The notes beneath the pieces are model-generated. The model searched no databases, had not been told where the DNA came from, and was given only the letters and a program-made list of their open reading frames with translations. Shown here in pieces: positions 8,927 through 60,911 of a DNA stretch of 64,000 nucleotides (position 1 is its first letter; every line of letters begins with the position of its first letter). The position numbers and the translations under genes are program-made. The DNA lies in contig CAWBAT010000005.1 in assembly GCA_963786955.1 (NCBI GenBank), positions 1,152,001-1,216,000 of the forward strand, written 5' to 3'. This DNA comes from an uncultured Acidimicrobiia bacterium. GTDB taxonomy: Bacteria > Acidobacteriota > Terriglobia > Versatilivoradales > Versatilivoraceae.

Positions 8927-9012
8927 AGGAGGTGTTGACGTCAATTTTTATGATTGCTGTCAGCCTGACCGCTGACGGTGGTCCGGCTGTTTGACTAAGA
9001 AGTGACGGCGTC

Positions 9013-9963
9013 TCAAATCGGAACGGGCACGGAATCGACAATATCCCGTAAGATCTTCTCCGTTTCCTCGCCCAGTCGCAATGTTGTTGAAAAACGACTA
9101 TTCACCACCACACGATGCCCCAGAACGGCGGGAACCAGCGCCTTCACATCGTCAGGCAGGCAATAGTCGCGCCCTTCCACGAAGGCCCGTGCTTGGGCGG
9201 CCCTCAATAGAGCCAGGGAACCGCGAGGGCTCACGCCAAGACTCAGGAGTTCTGTTTGGCGGGTCTTTTCGATAATCTGGAGGGCGTAATGCAGAATGAC
9301 CTCGTCCACCGGAATCCTTCGAACGAATTGTTGCATTTCGAGCACTTCATCGACGTTGAGAACAGCTTCCACGGATTCAATCGGATGTCGTCCCAACTGG
9401 CTGCGGAAGATAGTCTTCTCCTCATCCAAGGTCGGATAGCCGATTCTAATTCGCATGAGGAATCGGTCTAGCTGCGATTCCGGAAGGGGATAGGTCCCAT
9501 GATGTTCGATAGGATTTTGAGTTGCCAGAACCATGAACGGACGAGGGATTTCCAGAGTCTGACCGTCGGCCGTCACTTGTCCTTCACTCATCGCCTCGAG
9601 CAGAGCACTTTGAGTTTTAGGAGTGGTCCGGTTGATCTCATCTGCTAGAATCACATTTGCGAAGATGGGTCCCGGCTTGAACTCAAAAGTGCGCAGCCCC
9701 TGGTTGAAAATCGAGATTCCAATGATGTCCGAAGGGAGAAGATCGCTGGTAAATTGAATCCGATGAAAACGACATTGGATCACCAAAGCCAAGACATGTC
9801 CCAAGGTTGTTTTCCCCACACCGGGTACATCCTCAATCAGAAGATGTCCACCAGCGAAGAGTGCGGTCAATGCTTGCTTGACAATTTCGCGTTTGCCTTT
9901 GATGACGGTTTCAATCGTGTTCACTAAGGAAACAACTTTCTGCTGCTGATCGACCTTTAGCAT
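9013..9963 (-). CDS. moxR: MoxR family AAA+ ATPase
   Basis: EDVPGVGKT, RIQFTSDLLPSD, ADEINR, ATQNP, YPLPESQLDRF. Confidence 0.95.
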   Translation of the reverse strand: MLKVDQQQKVVSLVNTIETVIKGKREIVKQALTALFAGGHLLIEDVPGVGKTTLGHVLALVIQCRFHRIQFTSDLLPSDIIGISIFNQGLRTFEFKPGPIFANVILADEINRTTPKTQSALLEAMSEGQVTADGQTLEIPRPFMVLATQNPIEHHGTYPLPESQLDRFLMRIRIGYPTLDEEKTIFRSQLGRHPIESVEAVLNVDEVLEMQQFVRRIPVDEVILHYALQIIEKTRQTELLSLGVSPRGSLALLRAAQARAFVEGRDYCLPDDVKALVPAVLGHRVVVNSRFSTTLRLGEETEKILRDIVDSVPVPI

Positions 9964-16016: not shown

Positions 16017-17669
16017 TTACCCCAAGTTCCCTTTTTTTAACTCTTCGGCCAAATAATCGGTGGCTCGCCAGGCCAAAGCCAAAATCGTCAGTGTGGGATT
16101 TTTTTCGGTAGCTGCGGGAAAGGCACTTCCATCGACAACGAATAAGTTCTTCACATCGTGCATCTGGCAGAATCCATTGAGTGCCGATTGCTTGGGATCA
16201 CTTCCCATGCGGCAAGTACCATGCTCGTGAATAGCCTTCCCTGGCTGATCCACAGTTCCTCGCTTGTAACCGATTAATTCTGCTTTGGCTGAATGCATCA
16301 CCTGTTCGGCCGTGTCGTACATTTCTTCCAACATCTTTCGCTCATTGTCGCCAATCGAAAACACGATCTTGGGGAGCGGAACTCCATATGCATCGACGGG
16401 CGTCCCTTCCACGGTGATGTGGTTATCGGCGCGGGGCAAGACTTCTCCGTAGGGGTGCATTGCGATCCAGGCCGGATAGCGCCGCTTGATCTCTTTCTTG
16501 AAGTCTGAACCAAAGCCCGGCAGCTCCGTTGCATAATGGCTGGCCCCAGGCTGACAACCAATCCCCCAGAATTGGGCGCCAAAACCGCGCAGATAGTCTC
16601 TGGGTTTGCCGCGATGGTTGAACCGCGGCATATAGAGATGCTCTCCTCCGATCCCGTCATCGTTGCTCGACGGAAAACCATAGAGGTCAGGAAGGAAACC
16701 GTGAACATGAAACCGTACCTGCTCGCAAAGGTATTTCCCGATAACTTCTGAGCTGTTTCCGATTCCGTTCGGATATTGACGGGATTTGGAATTTAAGAGG
16801 ATTCGCGTGGAGTCGATGCACGACGCCCCCAGTACGACAACTTTGCCTTGTGCCCGGAATTCCTCTTTGGTATGGCGGTCAAAATACTGTACAGAACCGG
16901 CCCGGCCCCTTTCATTGGGAAGGATTCTTGCAACGACAGCGTTGGTTTGCAGGGTGAGATTTCCAGTCTCGAGGGCGTAGGGGATCAAATGATCAGCAGA
17001 ACAAAAGAAGGAGGCTGTATCACAACCCTTCCCACAGGCCCCACAATAGTGGCATGGTGGAAACCCACGATGGGGCTGGGTCAGCACTGCCCGTCGACCC
17101 GAAACCATCGGGATTCCGAGTTGATGAGCCGATCGCTTCAGGAGGAATTCTCCACAACGCATTCGCGGAGGAGGCATGTGGTAGCGGCTCCCAGGGAGGA
17201 CATCGGAATCATCATTACCACCGCACACTCCGATGAGCTGATCAACCTTGTCATAGTAAGGTGCAATATCTTTATAGGAAATGGGCCAGGGAATTTCCCA
17301 GCCGTCGCGTTCGGCAGCCTGAAAGTCCAGGTCCCCATATCGGAGAGACACTCTCCCCCAGATGTTTGTTTTCCCTCCGAGTCCCCAGACTCGAGTTAAG
17401 TCAAACGGCTTACCCGGAGGCGTAAAATAAGGTTGCTCTTGACGGCTCAAGAGGAAGTCGGGAGGATGCAGGCCGCGCTTCTCACGTTCACGGGCCTCAT
17501 CCGGCCAAACATGCGTCCAGTATCCCTCACGCTTGAAACGCTCACCCGCGTCCAGCATCAGGACTTTGGCACCTTGGCGCGTCAAATTCCAGGCGGCTAT
17601 CCCGCCAGAGGCGCCGGAACCGATGACTACAACGTCATACATGACCTGGTTGGGAACTAAATCTTGCAT
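16017..17669 (-). CDS. GMC family FAD oxidoreductase (glycoside 3-dehydrogenase-like large subunit)
   Basis: [11 protein letters not shown] motif, [11 protein letters not shown] Fe-S motif, [19 protein letters not shown]. Confidence 0.92.
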
Positions 17670-17804
17670 GGGGATCTAAGTTAATATATAGAGACTGACA
17701 CAATCTACAATCAGAAAAGAAACCTACAAAGTGCGAACAATTCTAAGCTGTTGGAAAGGGAAGAACAAGCGGAAGTGAATGTGGTTTGAAAGATCGTGGC
17801 TGGC

Positions 17805-17976
17805 GCACTCGTGTGTTTTTTGCATGACTGCGAAGAGTACACTGGTTGAAATTTTAAAGGCTTAAAGTTGATCCAGCTGGAAATTCTATCTTCTAAAAGT
17901 TAGGTGGTAATTTTGCTATGGACCCTCTGCCCTCCTATTGCGCCTTCCCGCAGACATGCACAAAACACATGGGTGC
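17805..17976. repeat. Pair of inverted 28-bp REP-like imperfect palindromes
   Basis: GCACTCGTGTGTTTTTTGCATGACTGCG (17805-17832) matches the reverse complement of 17949-17976 (GCACCCATGTGTTTTGTGCATGTCTGCG) at 24 of 28 positions. Confidence 0.55.
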
Positions 17977-18175
17977 AACACTGGCCGTTTTCCATATTAT
18001 GTTAAGGTATAATGTTTGATATTGGCATCGGGCAAAACTGCCCGAAAACTCATGTTATCAGGGGAATCCTTCCTGTTAATCAATGGTTGGGCCATCCGAG
18101 TACTCTCGGGCTGAAGCCGAGCATAGCCGTAGGTTTCAATTGCCGCTGGCTTGCTCCTCGGTTACCATCGAAGGC

Positions 18176-18487
18176 ATGACGTTGATCCAAGCAATTCGCG
18201 CAAAGGTTTTATCGGGTGCTTTTGAATTCTCGCAACACGCAGTTGACCAGACCATCCTACGACATATTAGCGTTCACGAGATCCGAGAAGCTATCAACGT
18301 GGGACAGGTGATCGAGGATTACCCGAACGACAAGTATGGTCCCAGTTGCCTGATCTTGGGATTCACCCAGGCAGGACGGCCGATTCATGTCCAGTGCAGT
18401 TATGCCTCTCGCCTGTTGGTGAAAGTCATCACGACCTACCAACCCGATCCGAATGAGTGGGTCGAATACAAACAACGGAGAAAATAA
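18176..18487 (+). CDS. DUF4258 domain protein, putative toxin
   Basis: FSQHAVDQ...EDYPNDKYGPSCLILG...RPIHVQC...ITTYQPDPNEW; paired with a YgiT-type gene. Confidence 0.85.
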   Translation: MTLIQAIRAKVLSGAFEFSQHAVDQTILRHISVHEIREAINVGQVIEDYPNDKYGPSCLILGFTQAGRPIHVQCSYASRLLVKVITTYQPDPNEWVEYKQRRK

Positions 18488-18488
18488 C

Positions 18489-18725
18489 ATGCCTGTTGAT
18501 ACGTCGGAAGAGACTTTTGTAGAACAGAAAGTAACCTACACCCTGGAAGTGCAAGGGCGTTTTATTATCATTGAGCATGTGCCCGCGCGCGTTTCGCTTC
18601 GCACAAGTGAACGATTCTTTTCTCCCGAGACGGTGGAGTGTCTCCAGAGGATTGTTTGGGAGCAAGGACCGCCCAGCCGTGTTATTGAAACCCCGGTGTT
18701 TGAGTATCCAGGCGTCATGGCCTAA
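18489..18725 (+). CDS. YgiT-type zinc-finger family protein, putative antitoxin, lacking CxxC motifs
   Basis: VTYTLEVQGRFIIIEHVPARV...ERFFSPETVE pattern; starts 1 bp after the DUF4258 stop. Confidence 0.8.
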   Translation: MPVDTSEETFVEQKVTYTLEVQGRFIIIEHVPARVSLRTSERFFSPETVECLQRIVWEQGPPSRVIETPVFEYPGVMA

Positions 18726-18781
18726 CCACGGCATCACCCGACGCAAAACCGCGGCGGCGGGTGATGCCTCAGTCGTTCCGC
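18720..18781 (+). other. attC-like recombination site 1
   Basis: R'' GCCTAAC overlaps the stop codon; stem GGCATCACCCG...CGGGTGATGCC; R' GTTCCGC; 62 bp. Confidence 0.75.
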
Positions 18782-18800
18782 CACAGAGGAGAGGATACTT

Positions 18801-19367
18801 TTGTTGGCAATTGTGAGTGACAACCTTGTCGTTGCCCAGCCGATCTCCGGCGGTTTTAGCTGGACACTCGCCTCGCGCATTTGCCAGATGATCACCAAGG
18901 CTGAGGCCCAGTTTGGCGCTCGGGACCGGTCGTTCACCGTGTTGGGGGTTGAGTTCAGGAATGGAGTTCCGCAAGTTTGGTTCCCCGGTAACTGCGGACA
19001 TGTCGTAGTCCAACTCGGTCTATCTGCGATGCAAGACCCGAACCGAGCGTTGTTTCAACTCGCTCACGAGTGTGTGCATCTTCTGGATCCCGCACCAGGA
19101 GCGACCAATAATCTCGAAGAAGGCGTCGCCACCCATTTTTCACTTGAGTTTATGCAAGCCGAACTTGGGTTAACTTATTCGACAGGCGACGCGAAGTATG
19201 ACAGCGCGTGCAGTCTTGTGCGGTTGCTGATTTCGACGAAGAGTGATTCCGTCAGAGAACTTCGACGTTTACACGGCCCTCTACGTGGCATTACGACTCA
19301 ACAGATTTCAGGGATTTGCCCAAGTTTGAACGCAGGAACTGCCAGCCAGCTAGCGAACCCCTTTTAG
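18801..19367 (+). CDS. Putative zinc metallopeptidase (HExxH, IrrE/ImmA-like), cassette gene
   Basis: LFQLAHECVHLL...LEEGVA; GAGGAGAGG RBS just after attC1. Confidence 0.7.
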   Translation: MLAIVSDNLVVAQPISGGFSWTLASRICQMITKAEAQFGARDRSFTVLGVEFRNGVPQVWFPGNCGHVVVQLGLSAMQDPNRALFQLAHECVHLLDPAPGATNNLEEGVATHFSLEFMQAELGLTYSTGDAKYDSACSLVRLLISTKSDSVRELRRLHGPLRGITTQQISGICPSLNAGTASQLANPF

Positions 19368-19375
19368 CGATGCCG

Positions 19376-19468
19376 GCCGAGCGAGGCGCTGCACCTGAAC
19401 GGGGCCGCTATACTGGTTTCGCGCGACATCAAGTTCTTGCTGCGGCCCCGGGAGCTTGGTCGTTAGAA
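19376..19468 (+). other. attC-like recombination site 2 (degenerate)
   Basis: GCCGAGC (R'' variant), GCTGCACCTGA, stem CGGGGCCGC...GCGGCCCCG, GAGCTTGGTC, GTTAGAA; the L' box appears partly deleted. Confidence 0.7.
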
Positions 19469-19485
19469 AGATAAAAAAAGATCGT

Positions 19486-20211
19486 ATGGATAAAGAACAC
19501 ATCCTTTCTGAAATCAGACGTACGACCGAGGAAAACAGAAACAGTCCACTAGGTATCGCCAGGTTTGAGAAGGAAACTGGAATAAAAGTGTGGGATTGGA
19601 GAGGAAAGTATTGGACTAGATGGGCTGATGCACTTGCAGAAGCTGGGTACAGCAACCCTAATGAGATGCAAACCGCTTACCCGGATGAATTCTTAATTGA
19701 GAAGCTCATAGAGCTAATCCAGGAACTTGGTCACTTCCCTACAACAACCGAGCGCAGACTCAAGGGTCATCAAGACAAGAACTTCCCAACTCATAACACA
19801 TTTTCAAGATTCGGGGGCAAAGCAGACTTGATAGAGGCTGTTCTGAAGTATTGCGATACTCATGACAAAGATGCTGAAATCGTTGCAGCCTGCAAGGTAG
19901 CCGCTTCCACCGGAAAACTTCAGCTACGAGATAGAGCAGGACCAGAACCAATCGAATTAGGTTTTGTTTATCTGATGAAATCAGGCAAATATTTCAAGAT
20001 AGGCCGAACCAATTGCGCGGAAAGACGCGAATTTGAGCTCCGAATCCTGCTACCTGAGAAACTTGAATTGGTTCATAAGATTAAAACTGATGATCCTTGT
20101 GGAATTGAAAAATATTGGCACGATCGCTTTAAAGACAGCCGCAAAAGTGGAGAGTGGTTTGACCTTTCGCCCAGTGACGTCAAAGCCTTCAAGCGACGGA
20201 AGACGATGTAG
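19486..20211 (+). CDS. GIY-YIG (T5orf172/Mug113-like) nuclease with N-terminal helical repeats, cassette gene
   Basis: GFVYLMKSGKYFKIGRT...IEKYWHDRF...GEWFDL; two N-terminal HTH-like repeats. Confidence 0.85.
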   Translation: MDKEHILSEIRRTTEENRNSPLGIARFEKETGIKVWDWRGKYWTRWADALAEAGYSNPNEMQTAYPDEFLIEKLIELIQELGHFPTTTERRLKGHQDKNFPTHNTFSRFGGKADLIEAVLKYCDTHDKDAEIVAACKVAASTGKLQLRDRAGPEPIELGFVYLMKSGKYFKIGRTNCAERREFELRILLPEKLELVHKIKTDDPCGIEKYWHDRFKDSRKSGEWFDLSPSDVKAFKRRKTM

Positions 20212-20215
20212 AACT

Positions 20216-20250
20216 GCCTAACGCCATAGGCTGCACACTACGTCCACCGA
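20216..20250 (+). other. Truncated attC-like site 3 (left half only)
   Basis: GCCTAAC 4 nt after the stop, then GCTGCACAC resembling the left arm of attC2; no complementary right arm. Confidence 0.45.
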
Positions 20251-20402
20251 CCCCTTGTCCTCCATCATTTAAGGGCTGCCCCCTCCCCCCCCGGCCCTCT
20301 TGCAAAATTGGGACTTTCAAGGGATCATGTGCTTCCTTAGATAGAAATAGAAACAGATAGAAACATGGCCCACATTATTCCGGGCGGGAAGGAATTCACC
20401 GA

Positions 20403-21428
20403 ATGAGTGGAAGGAAAACCCTGGGAGTTGTCTTGTTCCAACTTGGAGGTCCGGATTCTCTGGACTCCATTGAACCTTTTCTTCTCAATCTATTTCGAGA
20501 TCCCGACATCATTGATTTCCCCTTTGCCAAGATTGCCCGCGAACCGTTGGCGAGGTTAATCTCGTCCTCCCGAGCAAAAAGAGTGAGGAATCATTATGCC
20601 AAGATCGGTGGCAAGTCTCCGATCCTGGAATTTACGAAATTGCAGGCACGAGCCCTAGAGGCGGAACTGCAGACGGTTTGCGATGCAAAGGTGCATATTG
20701 CGATGCGATACTGGCACCCTCTTACGAAAGAGGCGGTTCGTTCTGTGGAGCAACAGTTGCCGGAGGAAGTTGTATTGTTACCCCTTTATCCACAGTATTC
20801 CAAGACGACCACGGGCAGTAGCTTAAACGAATGGGAACGTCAGACCCAAGTTTCTCCTATTGGCCGGATCCCGACTCGAACGGTTCGTGAATTTTACTCC
20901 TACCCGGGCTACCTCAGAGCCATTACGAGCAGGATCAATGAAAGCTTGACCCGCTTTCCGCTTACGGAAGAAGTCCATTTTGTTTTTAGTGCTCACAGTC
21001 TTCCAGTCAGCGTGATCGAAGGCGGAGATCCTTATCGGGACCAGATCGAAAAGACCGTAGATCTGGTTCTGGAATGCGGCGGGTGGAGCTTTTCCCACAC
21101 ACTTTGTTATCAAAGCAAGGTGGGGGCGAGCAAATGGCTGCAGCCCTCCTTGCACGACACCATTCATCAGCTTGGGATGAAAAAGGTCAGAAATGTTTTG
21201 GTCATACCGATTGCCTTTGTCTCCGATCATGTCGAGACTCTTAGTGAAATCGAACATGAAGCCCGGGAAGAGGCGGCTCATCACGGAATCCTGCAATTTG
21301 AAATGATGCGAGGACTCAATGATTCTCCTGAGTTTATTCAGGCTCTTGCCAAACTCGTGCTCAGCGAGTCAATGGATGCAAGTGCAAGAGATTTGGATCG
21401 AAAGGCGGTCAGGAGTTTTACCGGCTGA
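20403..21428 (+). CDS. hemH: Ferrochelatase
   Basis: QLGGP, IGGKSP, MRYWHP, PLYPQYS, FSAHSLP, GDPY, FVSDHVETL. Confidence 0.96.
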   Translation: MSGRKTLGVVLFQLGGPDSLDSIEPFLLNLFRDPDIIDFPFAKIAREPLARLISSSRAKRVRNHYAKIGGKSPILEFTKLQARALEAELQTVCDAKVHIAMRYWHPLTKEAVRSVEQQLPEEVVLLPLYPQYSKTTTGSSLNEWERQTQVSPIGRIPTRTVREFYSYPGYLRAITSRINESLTRFPLTEEVHFVFSAHSLPVSVIEGGDPYRDQIEKTVDLVLECGGWSFSHTLCYQSKVGASKWLQPSLHDTIHQLGMKKVRNVLVIPIAFVSDHVETLSEIEHEAREEAAHHGILQFEMMRGLNDSPEFIQALAKLVLSESMDASARDLDRKAVRSFTG

Positions 21429-21638: not shown

Positions 21639-22289
21639 GTGTCACAGATCTTTCATCGCAGCACCAATACAATTTCACGAGTCACCATTTTTGGGGCGAT
21701 CTTCATTATCGCTGCACTCTTGACTGTGGCGCTCATGATTAATCGTTCCGGATACGTTACACAAGCCGACGTCCCTCGCGAGCAACCTGTACCTTTCAGC
21801 CACCAGCACCACGTGGGAGGAATTGGGATCGATTGTCGTTATTGTCACACGACTGTTGAAATTTCCCATTCCGCTAATATTCCGTCTACAAAGATTTGCA
21901 TGAACTGTCATTCCCAAATATGGACGACAAGTCCAACTCTCGAGCCCGTTCGTGAAAGCTTTCGCAAAGACAAATCTATTCCCTGGATTCGCGTTCACGA
22001 TTTGCCGGATTACGCCTATTTCAACCATAGCATTCACGTGAACAAAGGCGTTGGATGTTCAACCTGCCATGGGCGCGTGGATCGCATGCCGCTGGTTTGG
22101 CAACATGCCTCACTCCAGATGGAATGGTGTCTGGATTGCCATCGTCAGCCGGAAAAATATGTGCGACCTCGTGAAGAGGTGTTTGATATGGAGTACCAGC
22201 CGCCTGCAGACCAAATTGAGTTGGGCAGGAGACTCGTGAAGGAATACAAAATCCAAAGCTTAACACACTGTTCCACTTGCCACCGATGA
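21639..22289 (+). CDS. actA: Alternative complex III pentaheme cytochrome c subunit
   Basis: One TM helix and five CxxCH motifs (CRYCH, CMNCH, CSTCH, CLDCH, CSTCH). Confidence 0.93.
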   Translation: MSQIFHRSTNTISRVTIFGAIFIIAALLTVALMINRSGYVTQADVPREQPVPFSHQHHVGGIGIDCRYCHTTVEISHSANIPSTKICMNCHSQIWTTSPTLEPVRESFRKDKSIPWIRVHDLPDYAYFNHSIHVNKGVGCSTCHGRVDRMPLVWQHASLQMEWCLDCHRQPEKYVRPREEVFDMEYQPPADQIELGRRLVKEYKIQSLTHCSTCHR

Positions 22290-25200
22290 CAAGAAACCAC
22301 AGTCTTATAGACCTGGCTTCCGTCCGGTCGAAATTGAATCAGACCCAAGGACAAGCGTATTGGCGAAGCCTGGAAGAATTGGCAGACACCCCTGGATTTC
22401 AGGAATACCTGTATCGAGAATTCCCGCAGAACGTCGATCAGTGGATCGATCCGGTTGGCCGCCGCCGTTTCCTTCAATTGATGGGTGCCTCCCTTGCCTT
22501 GGCAGGCTTGACAGGCTGCACCAAGCAACCCGCTGAACACATTATGCCCTATGTCAAGGCTCCCGAAGAAATCGTGCCCGGCAAACCGTTGTTCTTTGCC
22601 ACCGCCCGGCCTCATATGGGGTTTACTGAAGGGCTGCTCGTTGAAAGCCATATGGGACGCCCCACCAAGATCGAAGGCAATCCTGAACACCCTGCCAGTC
22701 TTGGATCCACAGACGTGCTCTCGCAGGCTTCTATTCTGACGCTTTACGATCCGGATCGCTCCCAAGCGGTCACACAATACGGAGAAATTCGCTCCTACCC
22801 ATCCTTTCTTGGCGAAATGAGGAATACGGTTTCACTCCTTAAGGGGAGCCAAGGGGCGGGCCTCCGAATTCTGACAGAATCCACTACCTCGCCTTCACTG
22901 GCGGCCCAAATCAAAGACCTATTGGCCCTTTATCCCCTAGCTAGATGGCACCAATATGACGCTGTGAGTCGTGATATGGCTCGCAAAGGGGCCCTCATGG
23001 CATTCGGGGAGCACCTCGATACACGTTATGATTTTTCCAAAGCGAATGTAGTGCTTTCTCTCGATGCAGACTTCCTGACAGATAATCCCGGACGTCTGCG
23101 GTATACGCGCGATTTTGTCTCTCGGCGACGTGTTCGCGAAGGCCAATTCGAGATGAATCGCCTCTACGTTGTTGAGCCCACGCCCACCAACACCGGATCG
23201 ATGGCGGACCATCGTCTGCCTATGAGCGCTGGAGACGTTGAGAAATTTGCCTGGGCGCTTGTTCAGGAATTAGGCATCCCGGTTCAAAAGAAGAATTTAG
23301 AGGGAGCGCCCGGCGCTGCCTGGATCGCTCCGCTTGCAAAGGATTTGCGACTAAACTCGGGGAAATCGATTGTCATTCCAGGAGAACATCAGTCCCCGAC
23401 AGTTCATCTCTTGACTCACGCCATGAACCAGTTTCTCGGGAATATCGACAGTACTGTTTTTCATACCGATCCCGTGGAAGCCGATCCTACCGACCAATTC
23501 GCCTCGTTGCGCGATCTCGTGCGCTCGATGGAAGCAGGAAGTGTTGATACATTGCTCATTCTCGGGGGCAATCCCGTCTATACGACGCCCGCCGACTTAA
23601 ATTTTGCGGACGCCCTAACCAAAGTAAAACTGCGAATTCATTTGGGCCTATACAACGATGAAACAGCATTCCTCTGCCATTGGCACATCCCAGAAGCCCA
23701 TTTCCTTGAGTCCTGGAGCGACGGGCGGGCATACGATGGTACGCTTAGTATTTTACAGCCGTTGATTGCTCCTCTCTATGATGGCAAAACGTCACACGAA
23801 TTGCTCGCTGCTTTCACGACCAGGCCCGACCGATCCAGTTATGAAATTCTGCGAGATTATTGGAGGAGAAATTGGCCAGGCGCCGCTGTTCCAAAAGACA
23901 CAAGGCAATCCAAAGTGCCGTCCACTCAGGCGGAGGGGTTCGATCATTTTGAGCGGCAATGGCGGCAAGCGATCCACGACGGGTTTATTGCCGGAACGGC
24001 TTTGCCCGCGAAGAAGACTTCGATGGACGCCGGCCTGGTAAATCAACTGCAGCCGACCGCAATTTCCAGCAATCAAGCCAACAGCCAACTTGAGATCATT
24101 TTCCGTCCAGATCCGCACATTTTCGACGGTCATTTCGCCAATAATGGCTGGCTGCAAGAATTACCCAAACCTCATACCCGGCTCACTTGGGATAATGCGG
24201 CTCTCGTGAGCCCAGCTACCGCACAGAAGCTGCGACTGAATAATGAAGAGCTGGTTGAATTGAGTTACCAGGGACGTAAGGTTGAAGCGGCCGTATGGAT
24301 TTTGCCCGGTCAGAGTCCGAATTCAGTCACCCTTCATTTGGGATATGGCCGGACGTGGACAGGGCGAGTAGGTAAAGGGGCCGGATTCAATGCCTACTTG
24401 CTCCGCACCACGGATACAGCGTCGTTTGGTTCTGGCTTAGAGATTCGGAAAACCGGCAAGCACTACCCATTGGCCTGTACACAGCATCATTCCAGCATGG
24501 AAGGGCGTAACCTTGTCCGTGCCGGAACGCTTGAGGAGTTCAAGCAGAATCCTGATTTCGTTCAGGAGATGGGAGAGAATCGTCCCAACAGTCTTTCCGT
24601 GTACCCGGCATTCAAATACGAGGGAAACGCCTGGGGGATGGTGATCGACTTAAATGCATGCACAGGCTGCAACGCCTGTACTATCGCCTGCCAGTCCGAA
24701 AATAACATTCCGGTTGTCGGGAAAGAACAAGTCGTCATTGGTCGCGAGATGCACTGGATTCGGGTGGATCGTTACTTCAAAGGCGAACTGGACAACCCCG
24801 AAACCTATAACCAACCTGTTCCTTGCATGCAGTGTGAAAATGCTCCGTGCGAAGTCGTTTGCCCTGTGGGTGCCACTTCGCATAGCCCGGAAGGGCTAAA
24901 TGATATGACTTATAACCGTTGTGTGGGTACGCGTTATTGTCTCAATAATTGCCCTTACAAGGTGAGACGCTTCAATTTCCTGCTCTATTCGGATTTTGAA
25001 ACGCCAAGCCTGAAGCTGGGTCGAAATCCGGACGTCACCGTTCGATCGCGTGGAGTCATGGAGAAATGCACGTACTGCGTGCAAAGGATTAATGTGGCCA
25101 AAATCAATGCGGAAAAGGGAAATCGGCCCATTCGCGATGGAGAAATTGTGACCGCTTGCGAAGCCGTGTGTCCTGCTAAAGCCATTACCTTCGGGAATCT

Positions 25201-25336
25201 CAATGACCCGGCGAGTCGTGTGACTCGCCTCAAAGCTGAAAAACTGAATTATGGCCTGTTGGCCGATCTCAATACCCGGCCCAGAACGACGTATCTGGGA
25301 CGATTGAGGAATCCGAATCCGGAGATGATCCTCTAA
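22286..25336 (+). CDS. actB: Alternative complex III subunit B (molybdopterin-oxidoreductase-like plus Fe-S domains)
   Basis: YWRSLEEL, TAT motif GRRRFLQ, CTGCNACTIAC, CMQCENAPCEVVCP, CVGTRYCLNNCP, CTYC; ATGA overlap with actA. Confidence 0.93.
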   Translation: MTRNHSLIDLASVRSKLNQTQGQAYWRSLEELADTPGFQEYLYREFPQNVDQWIDPVGRRRFLQLMGASLALAGLTGCTKQPAEHIMPYVKAPEEIVPGKPLFFATARPHMGFTEGLLVESHMGRPTKIEGNPEHPASLGSTDVLSQASILTLYDPDRSQAVTQYGEIRSYPSFLGEMRNTVSLLKGSQGAGLRILTESTTSPSLAAQIKDLLALYPLARWHQYDAVSRDMARKGALMAFGEHLDTRYDFSKANVVLSLDADFLTDNPGRLRYTRDFVSRRRVREGQFEMNRLYVVEPTPTNTGSMADHRLPMSAGDVEKFAWALVQELGIPVQKKNLEGAPGAAWIAPLAKDLRLNSGKSIVIPGEHQSPTVHLLTHAMNQFLGNIDSTVFHTDPVEADPTDQFASLRDLVRSMEAGSVDTLLILGGNPVYTTPADLNFADALTKVKLRIHLGLYNDETAFLCHWHIPEAHFLESWSDGRAYDGTLSILQPLIAPLYDGKTSHELLAAFTTRPDRSSYEILRDYWRRNWPGAAVPKDTRQSKVPSTQAEGFDHFERQWRQAIHDGFIAGTALPAKKTSMDAGLVNQLQPTAISSNQANSQLEIIFRPDPHIFDGHFANNGWLQELPKPHTRLTWDNAALVSPATAQKLRLNNEELVELSYQGRKVEAAVWILPGQSPNSVTLHLGYGRTWTGRVGKGAGFNAYLLRTTDTASFGSGLEIRKTGKHYPLACTQHHSSMEGRNLVRAGTLEEFKQNPDFVQEMGENRPNSLSVYPAFKYEGNAWGMVIDLNACTGCNACTIACQSENNIPVVGKEQVVIGREMHWIRVDRYFKGELDNPETYNQPVPCMQCENAPCEVVCPVGATSHSPEGLNDMTYNRCVGTRYCLNNCPYKVRRFNFLLYSDFETPSLKLGRNPDVTVRSRGVMEKCTYCVQRINVAKINAEKGNRPIRDGEIVTACEAVCPAKAITFGNLNDPASRVTRLKAEKLNYGLLADLNTRPRTTYLGRLRNPNPEMIL

Positions 25337-25389
25337 AGAGGCTTCAAGTTCCTATGGGCAGAAGCGCCTGAATTATTTCACCTGAACTC

Positions 25390-26775
25390 ATGAATCAAGA
25401 TCAATCCAGTCCGACAACCACCCATTTGACAGAGACGGCACCTATCATTGAGCCGGGCTATACTTTTGCCTCCGTGACGGACAAGATCAGCGCTGTTGTC
25501 TTGACTCATCGGACCCCGCGAGGCTGGTATTTTGGTTTCGGAATCGGCTTCATCCTGGTCATGCTGCTCCTCACGACGATCGGCCGGCTTCTGGTTGTCG
25601 GAACTGGCATTTGGGGCGTAACGAATCCTGTTGGTTGGGGATTTGACATCATCAATTTTGTCTGGTGGATTGGCATCGGACATGCCGGCACTCTGATCTC
25701 GGCCATCCTCTTGCTTCTGCGTCAGGAATGGCGGACTTCGATTAATCGGTTTGCGGAGGCCATGACTCTCTTTGCAGTTGCCTGTGCGGCACTCTATCCC
25801 TTGTTGCACACCGGCAGACCTTGGTTGGCCATCTACTGGCTCTTCCCCTATCCCAACACCATGGGACTCTGGCCGCAATTCCGCAGTCCACTCATCTGGG
25901 ACGTTTTCGCGGTTTCGACGTACGCAACAGTCTCCTTGCTCTTTTGGTTTGTTGGATTGATCCCGGACCTGGCTACACTCCGAGATCGTTCCCCCAACCG
26001 TTTTGGACGAATCCTGTTTGGGATTTTGGCCATGGGATGGCGCGGGTCAGCCCGCCACTGGACTCGTTATGAAGCGGCCTATTTGCTTCTGGCGGGCTTA
26101 TCTACCCCCCTTGTCCTATCGGTCCACTCGATCGTTAGTTTTGACTTCGCGGTCTCCGTGATCCCGGGCTGGCATGCAACCATTTTCCCGCCCTACTTTG
26201 TTGCGGGCGCCGTTTTCGCGGGGTTTGCCATGGTGCTTATTTTGGCGATTCCCATTCGGAAATTCTACGGTTTGGAAGATTTCATTACCCTGCGGCATCT
26301 CGATAACATGGCCAAGATTCTTTTGGTGACGGGCCTGATCGTGTCTTACGGCTATATGATGGAAGCCTTTTTCGGCTGGTACAGTGCGAATCCTTACGAG
26401 AGTTATATGATCTTGAATCGGATGAAAGGTCCTTATGCCTTCTTTTACTGGGTATTGATTTTCTGCAATGTTGTGGCACCGCAAGTTTTTTGGTCGAAAC
26501 GCATGCGGACAAACATTGCTGTGCTGTTTACCGTCTCCATTATTGTCAGCGTCGGAATGTGGCTGGAGCGCTTCATCATTGTCGTGACGAGCCTCAGTCG
26601 TGATTTCTTACCGTCGTCTTGGGGAATGTACTATCCGACTCGCTGGGATTTTGGAATGTTCTTCGGAACCATCGGCCTGTTTGTCAGCCTTTTGTTTTTG
26701 TTCCTGCGCTTTCTACCGATGATCTCAATTTTTGAAATGCGCACGATTCTCCCGCAAGCAGAGGTCAAGGAATAG
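25390..26775 (+). CDS. actC: Alternative complex III quinol-binding subunit (NrfD-like)
   Basis: [43 protein letters not shown]. Confidence 0.94.
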
Positions 26776-26831
26776 AAAGGCAGGCCTTCGTTGAGTCATA
26801 TGAAACGAGAACCACTGGAGTTCAACGTTTG

Positions 26832-27371
26832 ATGCGGTCGAGATCTTCTCTTTACGGATTAATGGCGGAATTTGACAGTGCCACGTCATTGGTGGCTGCT
26901 GCAAAACGCACCCGTGACTATGGGTATAAGAAAATGGATGCGTATTCGCCATTTCCCATTGAAGAGTTAAGTGAAGCCATTGGGTTTCACGATTGGCGCC
27001 TGCCGTTCATTGTTCTTTGCGGAGGCATAATGGGCTGCCTTGCCGGCTTCTTTTTCCAATATTGGACGACTGTGGTGGATTATCCGGTGAATATTGGCGG
27101 TCGCCCTTTGTTTAGTTGGCCGTCGTTTATTCCGGTAACCTTTGAGACGACCGTGCTGGGAGCCTCCCTCGGGGCGGTCCTGGGGATGTTAGGTCTCAAT
27201 GGTTTGCCGATGCCCTATCACCCGGTCTTCAACGTGTCCAGGTTCGCGCTTGCGAGCCGCGATCGTTTCTTCTTATGTATTGAGGCACGGGATCCAAAAT
27301 TTGATCAGGAGGCCACTCGACGATTTCTCGAGTCGCTGGGACCACGCATTGTTCATGAAGTCCCCCATTGA
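26832..27371 (+). CDS. actD: Alternative complex III subunit D (DUF3341)
   Basis: DAYSPFPIE, DYPVNIGGRP..SWPSFIPVTFE. Confidence 0.92.
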   Translation: MRSRSSLYGLMAEFDSATSLVAAAKRTRDYGYKKMDAYSPFPIEELSEAIGFHDWRLPFIVLCGGIMGCLAGFFFQYWTTVVDYPVNIGGRPLFSWPSFIPVTFETTVLGASLGAVLGMLGLNGLPMPYHPVFNVSRFALASRDRFFLCIEARDPKFDQEATRRFLESLGPRIVHEVPH

Positions 27372-27374
27372 TTT

Positions 27375-28112
27375 GTGATGAAGAGCATCGTGCGTTTTAT
27401 GAATTGCGCCAAACAATTCAAGAGCCGGTCTGGCCTATGGGCTAATGAGAACATGGGCCAGTTCTGCCTGAACTCTTTTTCTACTTCTCGAGCTCTGTCT
27501 CCGTTCTTGCTGGTCCTGGGATTGACGATCCTGACCGGTTGTCGTCAGGACATGCAAAATCAACCCAAATACAAAGCGCTGGCTCCCAGCAGTTTTTTCT
27601 CAGACGGACGTTCTGCGCGACCACTGGTGTCTGGAACGGTGGCCAGAGGGGATCTCCGAGAAGATACGGATCTCTACCTGGGTAAAGTTGATGGAAAGCT
27701 GGTCGATGCATTCCCCTTTCCTGTGACCAAGCAGATCCTGGAACGAGGGCAGGAACGTTACAATATTTATTGCGTTCCCTGCCACGACCGGGTTGGAAAT
27801 GGGCAGGGGATGGTTGTGAAGCGGGGGTTTCGGCCCCCACCGTCCTACCATATTGAACGTTTGAGGCAAGCTCCGGCAGGATATTTTTATGATGTGATCA
27901 CGAATGGGTTTGGCGCGATGCAGGACTATTCCGTGCAGGTCCCAGTTCGAGACCGATGGGCGATCGTGGCGTATATTCGAGTGTTGCAGTTAAGCCAACA
28001 TGCCAGCCTGAATGACGTGGCCGAAGCAGATCGCAATAAGTTGAATGGAGAAGCCGGTTCCCGGTCCACACCGCCGCATCCCCAGGAAAACCATGGGTCA
28101 ATTGGTGAGTAG
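27375..28112 (+). CDS. actE: Alternative complex III monoheme cytochrome c lipoprotein
   Basis: Lipobox LTGC-RQDM, single CVPCH, DRWAIVAYIR. True start is probably further downstream. Confidence 0.9.
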   Translation: MMKSIVRFMNCAKQFKSRSGLWANENMGQFCLNSFSTSRALSPFLLVLGLTILTGCRQDMQNQPKYKALAPSSFFSDGRSARPLVSGTVARGDLREDTDLYLGKVDGKLVDAFPFPVTKQILERGQERYNIYCVPCHDRVGNGQGMVVKRGFRPPPSYHIERLRQAPAGYFYDVITNGFGAMQDYSVQVPVRDRWAIVAYIRVLQLSQHASLNDVAEADRNKLNGEAGSRSTPPHPQENHGSIGE

Positions 28113-28139
28113 GTTAAAGACAGGGTCAAAGGGGTTCTA

Positions 28140-29324
28140 TTGATCGAGATTCAGGATGCAACTCTAAACTTACCCATTCTCCAAAGGGTGCAGAAGCGAA
28201 GCTTTGCCGCGGGCGGAATTTTTCTAGCCTTGTGCATTGGGGGTGCCATATCAAACCCCGACCAATTTTTTCGATCCTACTTATTTGCCTTCGTCTTTTG
28301 GAGCGGGATTCCACTGGGTTCCCTGGCGATCCTGATGCTTCAATACCTTACGGGGGGCGCATGGGGGATCATGATACGGCGGTTGCTTGAAGCCTCAACG
28401 CGCACATTGCCGATCTTGGCTGCACTGTTCGTCCCAATCTTTTTCGGGATGCAGCACCTCTATGAGTGGGCCCAGCCTGAAAAGGTGAAAGCCGACAAGA
28501 TCTTGCAGCATAAGGCCCCTTATTTGAATATCCCTTTTTTTGCCTTGAGAACCGTCGTGTACTTTCTGGCGTGGTACAGCCTGATTTACTTTTTCAATAA
28601 GTGGTCGCAGCAACAGGATGACAACAAGGCGGCCCGGACAAAATTCAACGCGGAGAGTCTGAGCGGCCCTGGGCTTGTTATTTTTGGGGCTACCGCAACT
28701 TTTGCTTCTTTCGACTGGGTGATGTCTCTTGAGCCGCACTGGTATTCCACCATATTTGGCATGTATTACATGATCGGGCAAACCTTAACCACATTTTCTT
28801 TTACGATTTTGGTTTTGATCCTGCTGGCGGAGAGGAAGCCCTTGTCGGAAGTACTCTCACCCGAACACCTCCATGACCTGGGAAAGTTGACCCTTGCCTT
28901 CGTAATGATTTGGGCCTACCTGTCCTTCTCCCAATTCTTGATTATCTGGTCTGGAAATTTGCCGGAAGAAACACCGTATTATTTAAAACGTTTAGCCAAC
29001 GGCTGGTGGTGGCTGCAACTTGCATTGATCTTGTTCCACTTTGCACTCCCGTTTATTCTATTGCTCTCACGGAGCTTGAAGAGGGCTCCTCGGCAGCTGA
29101 TTAAAGTGGCGTCTTTGATCCTCTTCATGAGATTGATTGATTTGTTCCTCCTGATAGCCCCTACTGGACACGATGGGCATTTCCGCATCCATTGGATGGA
29201 TCTGGCTGCGCTCTTGGGAATCGGTGGCGTCTGGTTGGGAGTATTCTGCAGGACCTTGATTGCCCGACCAGTGCTTCCAGTTCATGATCCTGCGTTTGAG
29301 GAGGCGCTGCAAGGTGGCCACTAA
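28140..29324 (+). CDS. actF: Alternative complex III subunit F
   Basis: FDWVMSLEPHWYSTIFG, HDLGKL, SQFLIIWSGNLPEE. Confidence 0.92.
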   Translation: MIEIQDATLNLPILQRVQKRSFAAGGIFLALCIGGAISNPDQFFRSYLFAFVFWSGIPLGSLAILMLQYLTGGAWGIMIRRLLEASTRTLPILAALFVPIFFGMQHLYEWAQPEKVKADKILQHKAPYLNIPFFALRTVVYFLAWYSLIYFFNKWSQQQDDNKAARTKFNAESLSGPGLVIFGATATFASFDWVMSLEPHWYSTIFGMYYMIGQTLTTFSFTILVLILLAERKPLSEVLSPEHLHDLGKLTLAFVMIWAYLSFSQFLIIWSGNLPEETPYYLKRLANGWWWLQLALILFHFALPFILLLSRSLKRAPRQLIKVASLILFMRLIDLFLLIAPTGHDGHFRIHWMDLAALLGIGGVWLGVFCRTLIARPVLPVHDPAFEEALQGGH

Positions 29325-29787
29325 GCACGGAAATCTTGAGCAGATACCGCCTGAAAGCCAACATGAAGCTAGTGATGTCAGCGCTAGGCCTATCTTCTAC
29401 TTTGCCATTGCTCTTGTCATTCTCATCATTTTTACCGTGATCTCGATGAAGGGGCTCTTCAATTTTCTTGATCAAGAAGCCGATCGCTCTGACACGCAGC
29501 TTTCCGGTGTTGCCTTCGAGCGCCCCACACTGCCCCCCTTACCTCGTTTGGAGTCGGATCCGGTTGCTGTTCGAAGACAATTTTTCCAAAATGAAAAGAA
29601 AATCATTGAGAGTTATGGCTGGGTAGATCAGAAACAGGGTATTGTGCGAGTTCCAATCAATCGGGCTATGGAATTACTGGTTGAGCGGGGTTTGCCAGTG
29701 AGGGCTGAGGCCAAAGTGAACCCAAGCAGTGAGCAATCTCGAGAGCCGGGAAAGTTAGAAGCAGAGAAAAGCCCAGCTGGAAAGTAG
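29314..29787 (+). CDS. Single-pass membrane protein of the ACIII operon (ActG-like position)
   Basis: GAGGAGG RBS, HEASDV, TM helix, PLPRLE, YGWVD...VRVPINRAM. Confidence 0.7.
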   Translation: MATKHGNLEQIPPESQHEASDVSARPIFYFAIALVILIIFTVISMKGLFNFLDQEADRSDTQLSGVAFERPTLPPLPRLESDPVAVRRQFFQNEKKIIESYGWVDQKQGIVRVPINRAMELLVERGLPVRAEAKVNPSSEQSREPGKLEAEKSPAGK

Positions 29788-30780
29788 GTGAGAGGAAACA
29801 TGTTACGAAGTCACTACGAGTACGAATCGATAAGACAGGCATTCAGGCGATTTTCATCTCTGGTCCCGCCGGGGAGAGAGGCGCGTTGTCGCTCAGTTTC
29901 TTCGCCCCTTCAGCGATGGAGGAAAATAGTGACTTTCTCGCTCCCCTCGAGTTTTCGAGTCCTCAAATTGTTTTTCATGGCTTGCCTTTTCATTTTCAGG
30001 GGAACGAGCCTAACGGCGTCGACCCTTCAGCCGGCCCCAAACCAGCTCCCCGAAGCTGTGCGCAACGTGGGCATTGATCAGCGGCTCAATGAACAGTTGC
30101 CGTTGGATTTGGTGTTTAGGGATGAAAATGGGAAGGCCGTCCAGCTCGGAGACTATTTTCGGGAAAAGCCCGTTATCTTGACCCTCGTTTATCACGAATG
30201 TCCGATGCTCTGCAGTGAAGTGCTGGATGGATTACTTCGCACGCTGCGTGTCTTAAAATTCAATATCGGTAAGGATTTCGACGTCATCACCGTGAGTTTT
30301 AATCCCGAGGAGGATGCCACGATTGCCCGATCTGTCAAGGAAACCTACCTGAAGCGATACAGGCGGGAGGGTGCGGAAGCGGGATGGCATTTTCTGACTG
30401 GAGAACAACCTTCCATTGAGAAGTTAACGAAAGCTGTGGGGTTCCGCTACGGCTATGATTCGGCCAAAAAACTGTATGTCCATGCGGCAGGGATTATGTT
30501 GGTGACTCCTCAAGGGCGGTTATCGCGTTACTTCTATGGAATTGAGTTTCCGGCCAAAGATCTCCGTTTAGGACTGGTTGAGGCCTCACAAAATAAGATC
30601 GGTTCAGTAGTAGACCAGGTTCTACTCTACTGTTACCACTATGATCCGGCCACCGGGACATACGGCCTGGTCATCATGACGATTGTCCGAATACTTGGAA
30701 TTGCTTTTGTCCTTGGCATGGGGTTATGCATCGCTCTCATGTTGCGCCGGGAGAAGGGCGCAAAGTATTTAGTTTCGTAA
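29788..30780 (+). CDS. SCO family copper chaperone
   Basis: CPMLC motif, WHFLTG, conserved His in YVHAAG. Start probably downstream. Confidence 0.92.
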   Translation: MRGNMLRSHYEYESIRQAFRRFSSLVPPGREARCRSVSSPLQRWRKIVTFSLPSSFRVLKLFFMACLFIFRGTSLTASTLQPAPNQLPEAVRNVGIDQRLNEQLPLDLVFRDENGKAVQLGDYFREKPVILTLVYHECPMLCSEVLDGLLRTLRVLKFNIGKDFDVITVSFNPEEDATIARSVKETYLKRYRREGAEAGWHFLTGEQPSIEKLTKAVGFRYGYDSAKKLYVHAAGIMLVTPQGRLSRYFYGIEFPAKDLRLGLVEASQNKIGSVVDQVLLYCYHYDPATGTYGLVIMTIVRILGIAFVLGMGLCIALMLRREKGAKYLVS

Positions 30781-30823
30781 TCGCTTTTTCGCATTGAAGT
30801 AAGATTCCAAAATACCGATCACT

Positions 30824-31828
30824 ATGCATTCCGAATTCCCATTATTTCCGGATCAAGCCTCTACGCTGGCCGCTGAAGTGGATCATCTGTACTTCTTTTT
30901 GTGCCTGGTCACGCTATTTTTTTCAACCCTGATTGCAGGGCTTCTTTTATTCTTCGCAATCCGATTCCGCCGCCGGTCGGAAGTTGAATTGCCTCAGCCG
31001 GTCACGGGTTCTTCGACTCTTGAGATTCTATGGACTGTGATCCCGTCCATTATTCTCGTGGTGATTTTCTTTTGGAGTGCCAAGATCTACTTCTCTATCG
31101 CCCGCCCTCCATCCGATGCCATGCCCATTTACGTCGTAGCGAAACAATGGATGTGGAAACTGCAACATCTGGAGGGACAGCGGGAAATCAATGAACTCCA
31201 TATTCCCGTTAACCGCGCGGTTCGCCTGATCATGTCGTCTGAAGACGTGATCCACAGTTTTTATGTGCCGGCATTCCGAGTCAAACAGGATGTGCTGCCG
31301 GGGCGCTATTCAACCCTCTGGTTCAAAGGGACGCGACCCGGCGAATACCATCTGTTTTGTGCGGAATATTGCGGGACAAAGCACTCGGGTATGATTGGCA
31401 AGGTGGTGGTCATGGAACCGGCTGATTTTCAAAATTGGCTGAGTGGAGGCTCTCGCGAGGAATCGATGCAGGTGAGAGGCGAGCGCCTCTTTCAGAACTT
31501 TTCTTGCGTCAATTGTCATCACTCGGACGGGAAAGGCCGTGGGCCGGCACTCGAAGGGATCTTCGGAAAACCTGTCAGGCTGCAAACCGGCCAAACGATC
31601 ATTGCCGACGAGAACTATTTGAGAGAATCAATCTTGAATCCAAGCCTAAGAGTGGTTGAAGGATACCAACCGCTGATGCCGATGTTTCAAGGCTTAATTA
31701 ATGAAGATGGACTGGCCCAGATTCTGGCATACATCAAATCGCTGACCCCTCAGGTTCCAGAGGCTGTCAGCGCCCATGCCACGAAAGATCTGGCCAGACC
31801 GAATGAAAGGCAGAATCAAAAACCATGA
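30824..31828 (+). CDS. coxB: Cytochrome c oxidase subunit II with fused cytochrome c
   Basis: DVIHSF and [12 protein letters not shown] (CuA ligands); CVNCH heme motif. Confidence 0.95.
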
Positions 31829-33456
31829 GTACCTTAACGGCTCCTGTCACCCCGGTGGAAACTCGAGAACATTATCTCAATTCCAGTTACGGTATTAAGT
31901 CGTGGCTGCTTACTACCGATCACAAGAGGATTGCGCTCTTATATTTGATGTCCATCACCTTTTTCTTCTTCCTGGGTGGCCTGTTTGCCGTTTTGATTCG
32001 TTTGGAATTGCTGACCCCACAGGGGGATTTTGTGCAGGCGGAGACGTACAACAAGCTGTTCACGATGCACGGGGTCATTATGATTTTTTTCTTTCTCATT
32101 CCTTCCATCCCAGCCTCTCTGGGAAATTTTCTAGTGCCGATGATGGTCGGCGCAAAAGATTTGGCGTTCCCGAGAATCAACCTCTTGAGTTGGTACATTT
32201 ACGTGATTGGAGGATTGTTTACTTTGGGTGCCGTGTTGGCTGGGGGAGTCGATACGGGGTGGACGTTCTACACTCCATACAGCACGACGTATTCAAACGG
32301 TTACGTGATTGCGACAGGAGTCGGCGCTTTCATTACCGGATTTTCCTCCATTCTGACCGGGCTGAATTTCATTGTCACGATTCACAAAATGAGAGCACCC
32401 GGGCTTACTTGGTTCCGTCTCCCCCTGTTTATCTGGGCTCATTATGCGGCGAGCTTGATCATGATGCTGGGGACACCGGTCATCGCGATAACGTTAGCCT
32501 TATTAGCTCTTGAGAGGGCCTTTCACATAGGTATTTTCGATCCAGCCTTAGGAGGAGATCCCATCCTCTTTCAGCATTTGTTCTGGTTTTACTCGCATCC
32601 GGCAGTCTATATCATGATCCTTCCAGCCATGGGCGTGATCAGCGAGTTAGTCTCGTGTTTTTCGCGAAAGTATATTTTCGGATACCAGTTCGTGGCCTAT
32701 TCCAGCATTGGCATCGCAGTGCTCGGTTTTCTGGTCTGGGGGCATCACATGTTTGTGAGTGGCCAATCTGTCTATGCGGGATTGATTTTTTCGATGCTGA
32801 GTTTTCTGGTGGCAATCCCCTCCGCCATCAAAGTGTTTAATTGGACAGCGACCCTATACAAAGGTTCCATATCCTTTCAGTCTCCCATGCTCTATGCCTT
32901 TGGATTCCTCGGGCTGTTTACCATCGGCGGTTTAACAGGCCTTTTTTTGGCGGCTGTGGGCCTGGATGTTCATGTCCACGACACCTATTTTGTAGTGGCC
33001 CATTTCCATTACATCATGGTGGGTGGTACGGTGATGGCTTACATGGGAGGGTTGCATTTTTGGTGGCCGAAAATTTCGGGTCGTCTTTATCCGGAAGGAT
33101 GGGCAAAATTCTCCGCCCTCGTTGTCTTTCTGGGGTTTCATCTGACTTTTTTCCCTCAATTCATTCTGGGTTACATGGGAATGCCAAGACGCTACCATGC
33201 CTATCCGGAAGAGTTTCAGGTGCTCAACGTCATGTCGTCAGCGGGGGCTTCAATCTTGGGAATTGGCTATCTGATTCCCATGATTTACTTGATCTGGTCG
33301 CTTCGTTACGGACCTCCTGCCTCGGCGAATCCTTGGGGGGCAACGGGACTGGAATGGCGAACACCGTCACCGCCCCCGACGGAAAATTTCACGGAAGTCC
33401 CCGTCGTCAATGAAGGGCCTTATGAATATTCAATCAGGGAGATTAAAGTTGTCTGA
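31825..33456 (+). CDS. coxA: Cytochrome c oxidase subunit I (A2 type)
   Basis: [21 protein letters not shown] (YS motif), WGHHM, AHFHY, GMPRRY. Confidence 0.97.
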
Positions 33457-53316: not shown

Positions 53317-53333
53317 AAAGAGAGAGAATTGAA

Positions 53334-53711: not shown

Positions 53712-53749
53712 GGGGCGACGATTCCACTCGCCCTCTCCATGCAAATTTT

Positions 53750-55135: not shown

Positions 55136-55139
55136 GGCC

Positions 55140-57248: not shown

Positions 57249-57371
57249 TGAGTCACATCTTTCTCGATCGGGTAATGATCGAATTGTGCCTGCACGGCGT
57301 GGTAGTATTGGTGAAACTCCCGAGGGCAGCCGTTTGGTCAGATACCCTGACCTCATTTTTTCTCAGCTTTT

Positions 57372-58728: not shown

Positions 58729-58762
58729 ACCCTCAAAAGGAAAGACCCCGACATCCGGAAAA

Positions 58763-60910: not shown

Positions 60911-60911
60911 G

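Follow-up and report, generated by a model that had tools for sequence, protein, structure and literature searches.

What is the block of small genes that lies immediately upstream of hemH in an uncultured soil member of the Acidobacteriota: an old integron cassette array, an undescribed defence system, or neither? The block lies in a 64,000-nt stretch of DNA, hereafter the window (NCBI assembly GCA_963786955.1, contig CAWBAT010000005.1, positions 1,152,001 to 1,216,000 of the forward strand); all coordinates below are window positions unless a comparison locus is named. A preliminary description, made from the letters alone, read positions 18086..20250 as a decaying cluster of attC sites without an integron integrase (CALIN) with three cassettes, and proposed that they carry only conflict-type genes and form a fixed defence island. 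We find that the interval is accessory and polymorphic. Each of its three units holds one gene or operon followed by an attC-like site 0–8 nt from the stop codon, and under a covariance model built for acidobacterial attC sites these sites come first or nearly first in the window, on the strand of the genes. We therefore consider it probable (about 0.6) that the extra DNA is a fossil CALIN-like integron cassette array of three units. Accessory DNA of this sort is commonplace, and the block reveals neither a new defence system nor a new kind of system.

A variable interval upstream of hemH

The window carries ~2.5 kb that is missing from its closest relative found (locus L001; flanking proteins 91–96% identical, flanking DNA 88–90%). 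In a blastn comparison, homology ends at 17791 and restarts at 20295. The corresponding interval of L001 is empty: the start codons of the two flanking genes are 292 bp apart, with 80 unrelated bases at the gap. A more distant relative (L002, 70–79% protein identity) has 1.18 kb of unrelated content at the same place. Since the interval is empty in one relative and different in the other, it is accessory DNA, as the preliminary description supposed; for the same reason the site is a variable spot, and calling the block 'fixed' was wrong. The block is either an insertion in the window or a loss in L001. All three units are missing from L001 together, and no relative in the comparison had a subset of them or other cassettes. 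The interval and its flanks contain the following features.

16017-17669, minus strand: GMC oxidoreductase gene, left flank (Pfam GMC_oxred_C, E 6.5e-25)
17792-20294 as outer limits, inner estimate ~17805-20262, no strand: extra DNA relative to L001 (blastn)
17805-17976, no strand: inverted-repeat element of 172 nt, 28-nt arms 86% complementary (DNA fold z -2.9)
18176-18487, plus strand: DUF4258 predicted toxin gene (Pfam PF14076, E 3e-22; alternative start of the open reading frame at 18083)
18489-18725, plus strand: YgiT/MqsA-like predicted antitoxin gene (TIGR03831, YgiT finger, E 5.9e-4)
18801-19367, plus strand: gene for a 188-residue HExxH protein of an uncharacterised family
19486-20211, plus strand: MUG113/T5orf172 (GIY-YIG-like) gene, 241 residues, with an N-terminal HNH-associated repeat (PF13455, 5e-14; PF10544, 2e-7; PF18780, 8e-5)
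20403-21428, plus strand: hemH, right flank (Ferrochelatase, 2.3e-107); its closest relatives are in acidobacterial metagenome-assembled genomes (MAGs)

The four genes between GMC oxidoreductase and hemH are co-oriented, tightly packed and arranged as three units: the DUF4258/YgiT pair, the HExxH gene and the MUG113/T5orf172 gene. Simple promoter and terminator scans returned nothing on the plus strand. The extra DNA exceeds the limits of 18086..20250 given to the array: it starts ~290 bp further left and ends at ~20262-20294. Its leftmost ~290 bp, before 18086, lie outside the array as first described and include the 172-nt inverted-repeat element. That element shows no attC likeness under the acidobacterial covariance model in either of the two alignment modes used below, and neither it nor any other non-coding element of the island has a further copy in the window or in 80 related loci.

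Two further observations concern the edges of this site. The left junction (17781-17794) resembles the beginning of cassette 3 (19459-19472) over 14 nt; as 1 of 26 such repeat families in 2.7 kb, this likeness was put down to chance. In L002, positions 8997-9898 hold a 129-residue open reading frame (ORF; 9227-9616, minus strand) between two copies of one ~146-nt palindromic element whose ends read TTAGTTAC...GTAACTAA; the attC model has no match in the GMC-hemH interval of that locus.

attC-like sites at the ends of the units

The boxes on which the cassette reading was built form one proposed cassette start and three sites.

18086-18092, plus strand: GTTGGGC, proposed start box of cassette 1, present as named
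18720-18781, plus strand: attC1-like site, GCCTAAC, 5 nt, L'', a loop of 14-17 nt, L', 8 nt, GTTCCGC
19376-19468, plus strand: attC2-like site of 93 nt, GCCGAGC, 5 nt, GCTGCACC ... GGGAGC, 6 nt, GTTAGAA
20216-20231, no strand: attC3 remnant, a 16-nt palindrome GCCTAAC GCCA TAGGC, that is R'' plus the last 5 nt of the consensus R'

All six named boxes lie where the preliminary description placed them. At attC1, GCCTAAC (18720-18726) contains the antitoxin stop codon TAA and GTTCCGC occupies 18775-18781; at attC2, GCCGAGC (19376-19382) follows the HExxH stop codon by 8 nt and GTTAGAA (19462-19468) precedes the ATG at 19486 by 17 nt; at attC3, GCCTAAC (20216-20222) lies 4 nt past the MUG113 stop codon. 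Measured from the ends of the stop codons, the R'' boxes begin at -5, +9 and +5 nt; unit lengths are ~690-770 nt, and the distance from R' to the next start codon is 17-19 nt.

attC1 is the window's best AAC-stem-GTT structure, with an 11-bp perfect stem and a DNA fold z of -3.9. A model-free structural scan placed it first in the window and found one equal site in a background of 1.36 Mb (the 80 related loci, both strands) and none in 30 shuffles. The same scan brought up tandem ~90-nt units with AAC...GTT palindromic ends in a Bacteroidota locus (L012, 290-785).

Taxon-specific attC models have been published, including one for Acidobacteria (Ghaly 2021, PMC8352920, Supplementary Data 1), and the R'' consensus of that model is GCCUAAC (PMC8352920). 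The R'' boxes of attC1 and attC3 are identical to it, and they account for 2 of the 3 GCCTAAC words in the window (3.87 expected). We ran the full Acidobacteria covariance model (322 states, length 106) with our own Cocke–Younger–Kasami (CYK) code in glocal and local mode, taking E-values from the model's own calibration per 128 kb (the window, both strands). As a control, the code was applied to 25 kb of integron arrays; it recovered every class-1 attC there with exact ends and the correct strand, and the local scores were 11.7-59.5 bits. In glocal mode attC2 (19376-19468, plus strand) is the top of the window at 4.5 bits (E 0.25; next best -1.4), and attC1 scores -11.0. The best local matches in the window are as follows.

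Rank 1, 18720-18781, plus strand: attC1, 9.48 bits, E 0.28
Rank 2, 45503-45524: a 22-nt hairpin, 9.08 bits, E 0.37
Rank 3, 19376-19413: a short match on the attC2 R'', 7.54 bits, E 1.06
Rank 4, 20216-20231: attC3, 6.42 bits on both strands, E 2.3

In the local traceback of attC1, R'', a 5-nt spacer and a bulge-free L'' stem are followed by the conserved GAC and a short loop, and then by L', a spacer of 8 nt and R'. The hairpin at rank 2, CTCCAACAATTC.GCGTTGGAG, lies inside a glutamate dehydrogenase gene and is also the best window match of the class-1 model described below (18.2 bits); as an attC candidate it was rejected and taken as chance.

How often such matches arise by chance was judged from 250 kb outside the island, made up of the rest of the window and 12 acidobacterial loci. 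In local mode this background holds 8 loci of at least 6.2 bits, and the 2.5-kb island holds three of at least 6.4 bits. The background rate fits the model's calibration and predicts ~0.08 loci in 2.5 kb against the 3 seen (Poisson ~1e-4). The top glocal match (attC2) and the top local match (attC1) are two different sites, both on the gene strand, each starting at most 8 nt from a stop codon. The one background match whose position was checked against ORFs, in L023, lies inside a coding region; the model matches in L017 and L023 were treated as noise because they fall inside coding regions. The E-values of the single sites should not be naively multiplied, because the sites were originally chosen by eye for the same features. 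Even so, noise does not produce clustering of this kind or such an arrangement with respect to the genes, and the attC tests lend the cassette reading weak but non-random support.

A number of results weigh against the reading as a fossil array, beginning with the scores themselves. attC1, attC2 and attC3 all score under the lowest real attC tested (11.7 bits), and at the scale of the 1.76-Mb contig their E-values rise to ~8, 7 and 63. IntegronFinder calls an attC at E<1 (PMC4889954). Since none of the sites scores like a real attC or falls under E 1 for the whole contig, a CALIN would probably go unreported by a standard caller. Our CYK code is a re-implementation, not Infernal. The local match on attC2 is a separate short alignment and not the glocal site, so that attC2 rests on the glocal result. 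The Acidobacteria profile HMM (nhmmer --max) has no match in the island, even with the threshold relaxed to E<=1000; its control recovered at least 14 class-1 attCs at E<1, with one match at E<=10 in the 1.36-Mb background. We also built a covariance model, R1, from 15 class-1 attC sites of 9 plasmid loci, which scored held-out attCs at 37.8 and 45.6 bits and missed the aadA5 attC. Over the whole window with filters off, R1 gives 5 matches at E<=10, none of them a site of the preliminary description. On the island alone it aligns attC1 over its full length at only 8.0 bits (E 0.52 in 2.7 kb) and has no match on attC2; across the 1.36 Mb of related loci it has 3 matches at E<=10, the best at 16.1 bits. 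A scan of 17600-20500 against Rfam at E<=10 returned only a chance-level snoR66 (E 0.41).

The anatomy of the sites adds to these points. The R'' boxes of attC1 and attC3 follow RYYYAAC and that of attC2, GCCGAGC, does not. Neither GTTCCGC nor GTTAGAA follows GTTRRRY, and attC3 retains only TAGGC. None of the sites has an L''/L' stem with an extrahelical base together with 5/6 spacers, a combination of bulge and spacing that 12 out of 17 tested real attCs show. In attC1 the extrahelical base is missing, the R boxes pair at 5/7 positions (2/7 mismatched), and the spacers measure 5 and 8 nt (or 3 and 6). The spacers of attC2 measure 5 and 6 nt, and its L box is irregular; its R boxes pair at 3/7 positions plus one G-T, and its fold (z +1.1) is no better than that of shuffled sequence. 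attC3 consists of GCCTA/TAGGC around six bases, lacking L boxes and any structure past these 5 pairs: this would be the shape expected of a collapsed R''/R' pair, yet the same letters make a trivial palindrome. The idea that the sites decay with distance along the array does not emerge from these comparisons. Nor did GTTGGGC hold up as the start of cassette 1: neither R1 nor the Acidobacteria model, glocal or local, has a match ending there, the box is not at the edge of the extra DNA, and it may be a chance match.

No integrase accompanies the array in the window. None of the 53 window ORFs of at least 130 residues matches a tyrosine recombinase family at E<=1e-5, and the best tblastn match of IntI1 in the window has an E-value of 2.2. 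To the left of cassette 1 there is neither an attC nor an attI, only 290 bp of other extra DNA. Among the comparison loci, L043 has at 2690-3535 (minus strand) a gene for a tyrosine recombinase that shares 32% identity with IntI1 across 329 residues (tblastn 4e-33); the attC model has no match in that locus.

These shortcomings bear on another explanation, namely a small accessory islet unrelated to integrons that entered by some other route or was lost in relatives, its hairpins being terminators or chance palindromes with AAC/GTT-like ends. We regard it as possible, though doubtful. That no site passes conventional attC thresholds, that attC2 folds like shuffled sequence, and that integrase, attI and a left-hand attC are all missing is what such an islet would look like, and background loci reach 9.1 bits in local mode. 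The extra DNA, moreover, opens with the inverted-repeat element, which is not attC-like, and the different gene in L002 is flanked by palindromic repeats of another type. Chance palindromes, however, sit poorly with the fact that the best glocal and the best local match of the window fall in the same 2.5 kb, on the gene strand and within 8 nt of stop codons, and that the background match checked in L023 is inside a coding region. The hairpins lack T-runs, and the terminator scan found none on the plus strand, which argues against terminators; and GCCTAAC is identical to the R'' consensus of Acidobacteria. On balance the CALIN reading stands as far as accessory units, attC-like sites and the lack of an integrase in the window are concerned, and it is weakened by the sub-threshold scores of all the sites.

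Gene content and the formation of the block

The genes of unit 1 resemble a pair found in locus L017. The DUF4258 protein has a homologue there (36% identity) that adjoins a YgiT gene, and the putative antitoxin matches the YgiT-type partner of that homologue (BLASTP E 1e-10); against TIGR03831 it scores 20.1 bits, just under the cut-off of 20.2. Its start codon lies one base past the toxin stop codon, and it has none of the four zinc-binding cysteines present in the L017 YgiT-type protein. With a toxin domain and an adjoining small antitoxin in one operon, the two genes are a predicted type II toxin-antitoxin pair.

The HExxH protein of unit 2 belongs to a family of at least 211 homologues of ~190 residues, and all the named ones are 'hypothetical'. 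Within the family H93 never varies, and H89, E90, E106 and E107 hardly do. Sequence searches of Pfam, PADLOC, PHROG and PDB gave no match to the protein, the family profile found nothing under E 0.28 among PDB sequences, none of the 120 homologue matches listed carries a Pfam domain, and a Pfam search of 42 family members found no family common to more than one of them. In two enterobacterial plasmid loci (L095, 2963-4534; L096, 3017-4585), a gene for 316-317 residues precedes the HExxH homologue by 16 nt, and the L095 copy of that gene has a RelB-like N-terminus (Pfam 1.7e-7); the two genes may form a two-gene module.

The MUG113 protein of unit 3 has 834 homologues of ~240 residues in many phyla, and among the phage families of PHROGs its T5orf172/MUG113 domain has matches with E-values as low as 1e-16; a search of plasmids gave no match. 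The gene is compositionally foreign: its GC content is 0.448 (z -3.3) and its z at third codon positions (GC3) is -4.4, with the other three genes of the island within 1.7 standard deviations. This GC3 value and the best homologue, 85% identical and in a MAG of another phylum (Deltaproteobacteria), are signs that the units have separate origins. The characterisation of the island as carrying only conflict-type genes holds for the toxin-antitoxin pair only, since the HExxH protein has no family assignment and the MUG113 protein only a weak match to the PADLOC model PDC-S57.

Could the three units nonetheless be one co-evolved, undescribed anti-phage system of toxin-antitoxin, peptidase and nuclease, the possibility that the preliminary description favoured? 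The genes are co-oriented and tightly packed, the third has PHROG matches, and integron cassettes have been reported to encode phage defence (10.1101/2024.07.02.601719). When the four island proteins were compared with PADLOC-DB 2.0, three had no match and no system was found; the one match, of the MUG113 protein to PDC-S57 (E 8.4e-4), covers a nuclease-like domain only. The places where the parts occur elsewhere also speak against a joint system: in three plasmid regions examined, HExxH homologues sit in gene contexts other than that of the window with no annotated nuclease alongside, and the MUG113 protein lacks a plasmid match. Composition differs among the units as well. We consider a joint system very unlikely. 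These gene facts fit independent mobile units instead; if the units are cassettes, they are independent by construction.

What was observed is the presence or absence of the block in relatives, which genes it contains, where the sites lie and how the models score them; its history as a fossil cassette array can be outlined conditionally. Units 1, 2 and 3 would each once have been a cassette ending in an attC, which an integron integrase recombined as a folded single strand; recombination between attCs would have joined the three. The array would now lie far from any integrase, with its sites eroded: both preserved R' boxes (GTTCCGC and GTTAGAA) depart from the consensus, attC1 has lost its bulge, the attC2 R'' reads AGC for AAC, and attC3 is down to 16 nt. 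Because the sites have lost these defining features, the cassettes are probably no longer mobile. Toxin-antitoxin pairs have been described as stabilising chromosomal integrons, and the pair in unit 1 may help to hold the block in place. Transcription probably starts from a promoter upstream of this pair and may continue towards hemH.

A more specific version of the fossil-array reading goes further: the HExxH and MUG113/T5orf172 genes would be one-gene cassettes directed against phages or plasmids and preserved in the fossil integron of an acidobacterium, and the region upstream of hemH a recurrent attG-like landing site. We think this version unlikely. If the fossil-array reading itself is true, the locus would be a worked example of how, in soil Acidobacteriota, integron cassettes come to be fixed at ordinary places in the chromosome. 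It would show that attC sites can erode below the reach of standard callers and that a taxon-specific attC model still recovers such fossils. Two widespread, uncharacterised gene families would then be travelling as cassettes, which would make them candidates for function screens.

Two other parts of the window deserve mention. Downstream of hemH, positions 21639-34105 carry an alternative complex III operon (ActA-like cytochrome, ActB-like, NrfD, ActD) followed by cytochrome c oxidase genes. In the stretch 49400-63650 a number of genes are broken up between neighbouring ORFs or frames: GlnE is in three pieces (49638-51760), and a MiaB-like radical SAM gene (54011-55135), MgsA (57430-58728) and AnmK (62799-63628) are also affected. 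These are either assembly frameshift errors or pseudogenes.

Comparison with known systems

The pair in unit 1 can be set beside DUF4258/YgiT (MqsA-like) type II pairs. It shares with the L017 pair the order of the genes and the one-base offset between them; it differs in that its antitoxin lacks all four of the zinc-binding cysteines of the L017 protein.

Insertion of single cassettes offers a second comparison. Small CALINs and single cassettes outside integrons are described as common and may arise by insertion at genomic sites (10.1101/2022.09.11.507474). Like lone attC sites without an integron integrase (SALINs) and attG insertions as that source describes them, the island is made up of units resembling cassettes that sit in an ordinary intergenic region lacking an integron platform. 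It departs from them in having three units and not one, no recognisable G/TT crossover at the junctions with the flanks, and non-cassette DNA at its left end.

The sites themselves are best measured against the attCs of chromosomal integrons in Acidobacteria, as modelled in PMC8352920. The R' boxes GTTCCGC and GTTAGAA differ from the consensus GUUAGGC, attC1 has no bulged base and a loop of 14-17 nt, attC2 has AGC in place of AAC, and the island scores far under class-1 attCs with the same model. On the side of likeness, the R'' GCCTAAC equals the consensus, attC1 keeps the order R'', 5 nt, L'', GAC ... L', spacer, GTT, and attC2, at 93 nt, is near the model length of 106.

The closest comparison is with CALINs (PMC4889954). 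Their definition calls for at least two called attC sites, and with the models run here the three sites of the island, at 9.5, 4.5 and 6.4 bits, are sub-threshold at contig scale (E>1); per 128 kb, attC1 (local) and attC2 (glocal) have E<1. In other respects the island resembles them. Small arrays are frequent among CALINs, with two cassettes in 1362 of 2961 (10.1101/2022.09.11.507474), and 95% of CALINs are reported to have no intI pseudogene nearby (Cury 2016, PMC4889954); the island, likewise, has no integrase within 18 kb to its left or 44 kb to its right. It is small, it includes a toxin-antitoxin pair, and its units are co-oriented and of the one-gene kind, each followed by an attC-like site.

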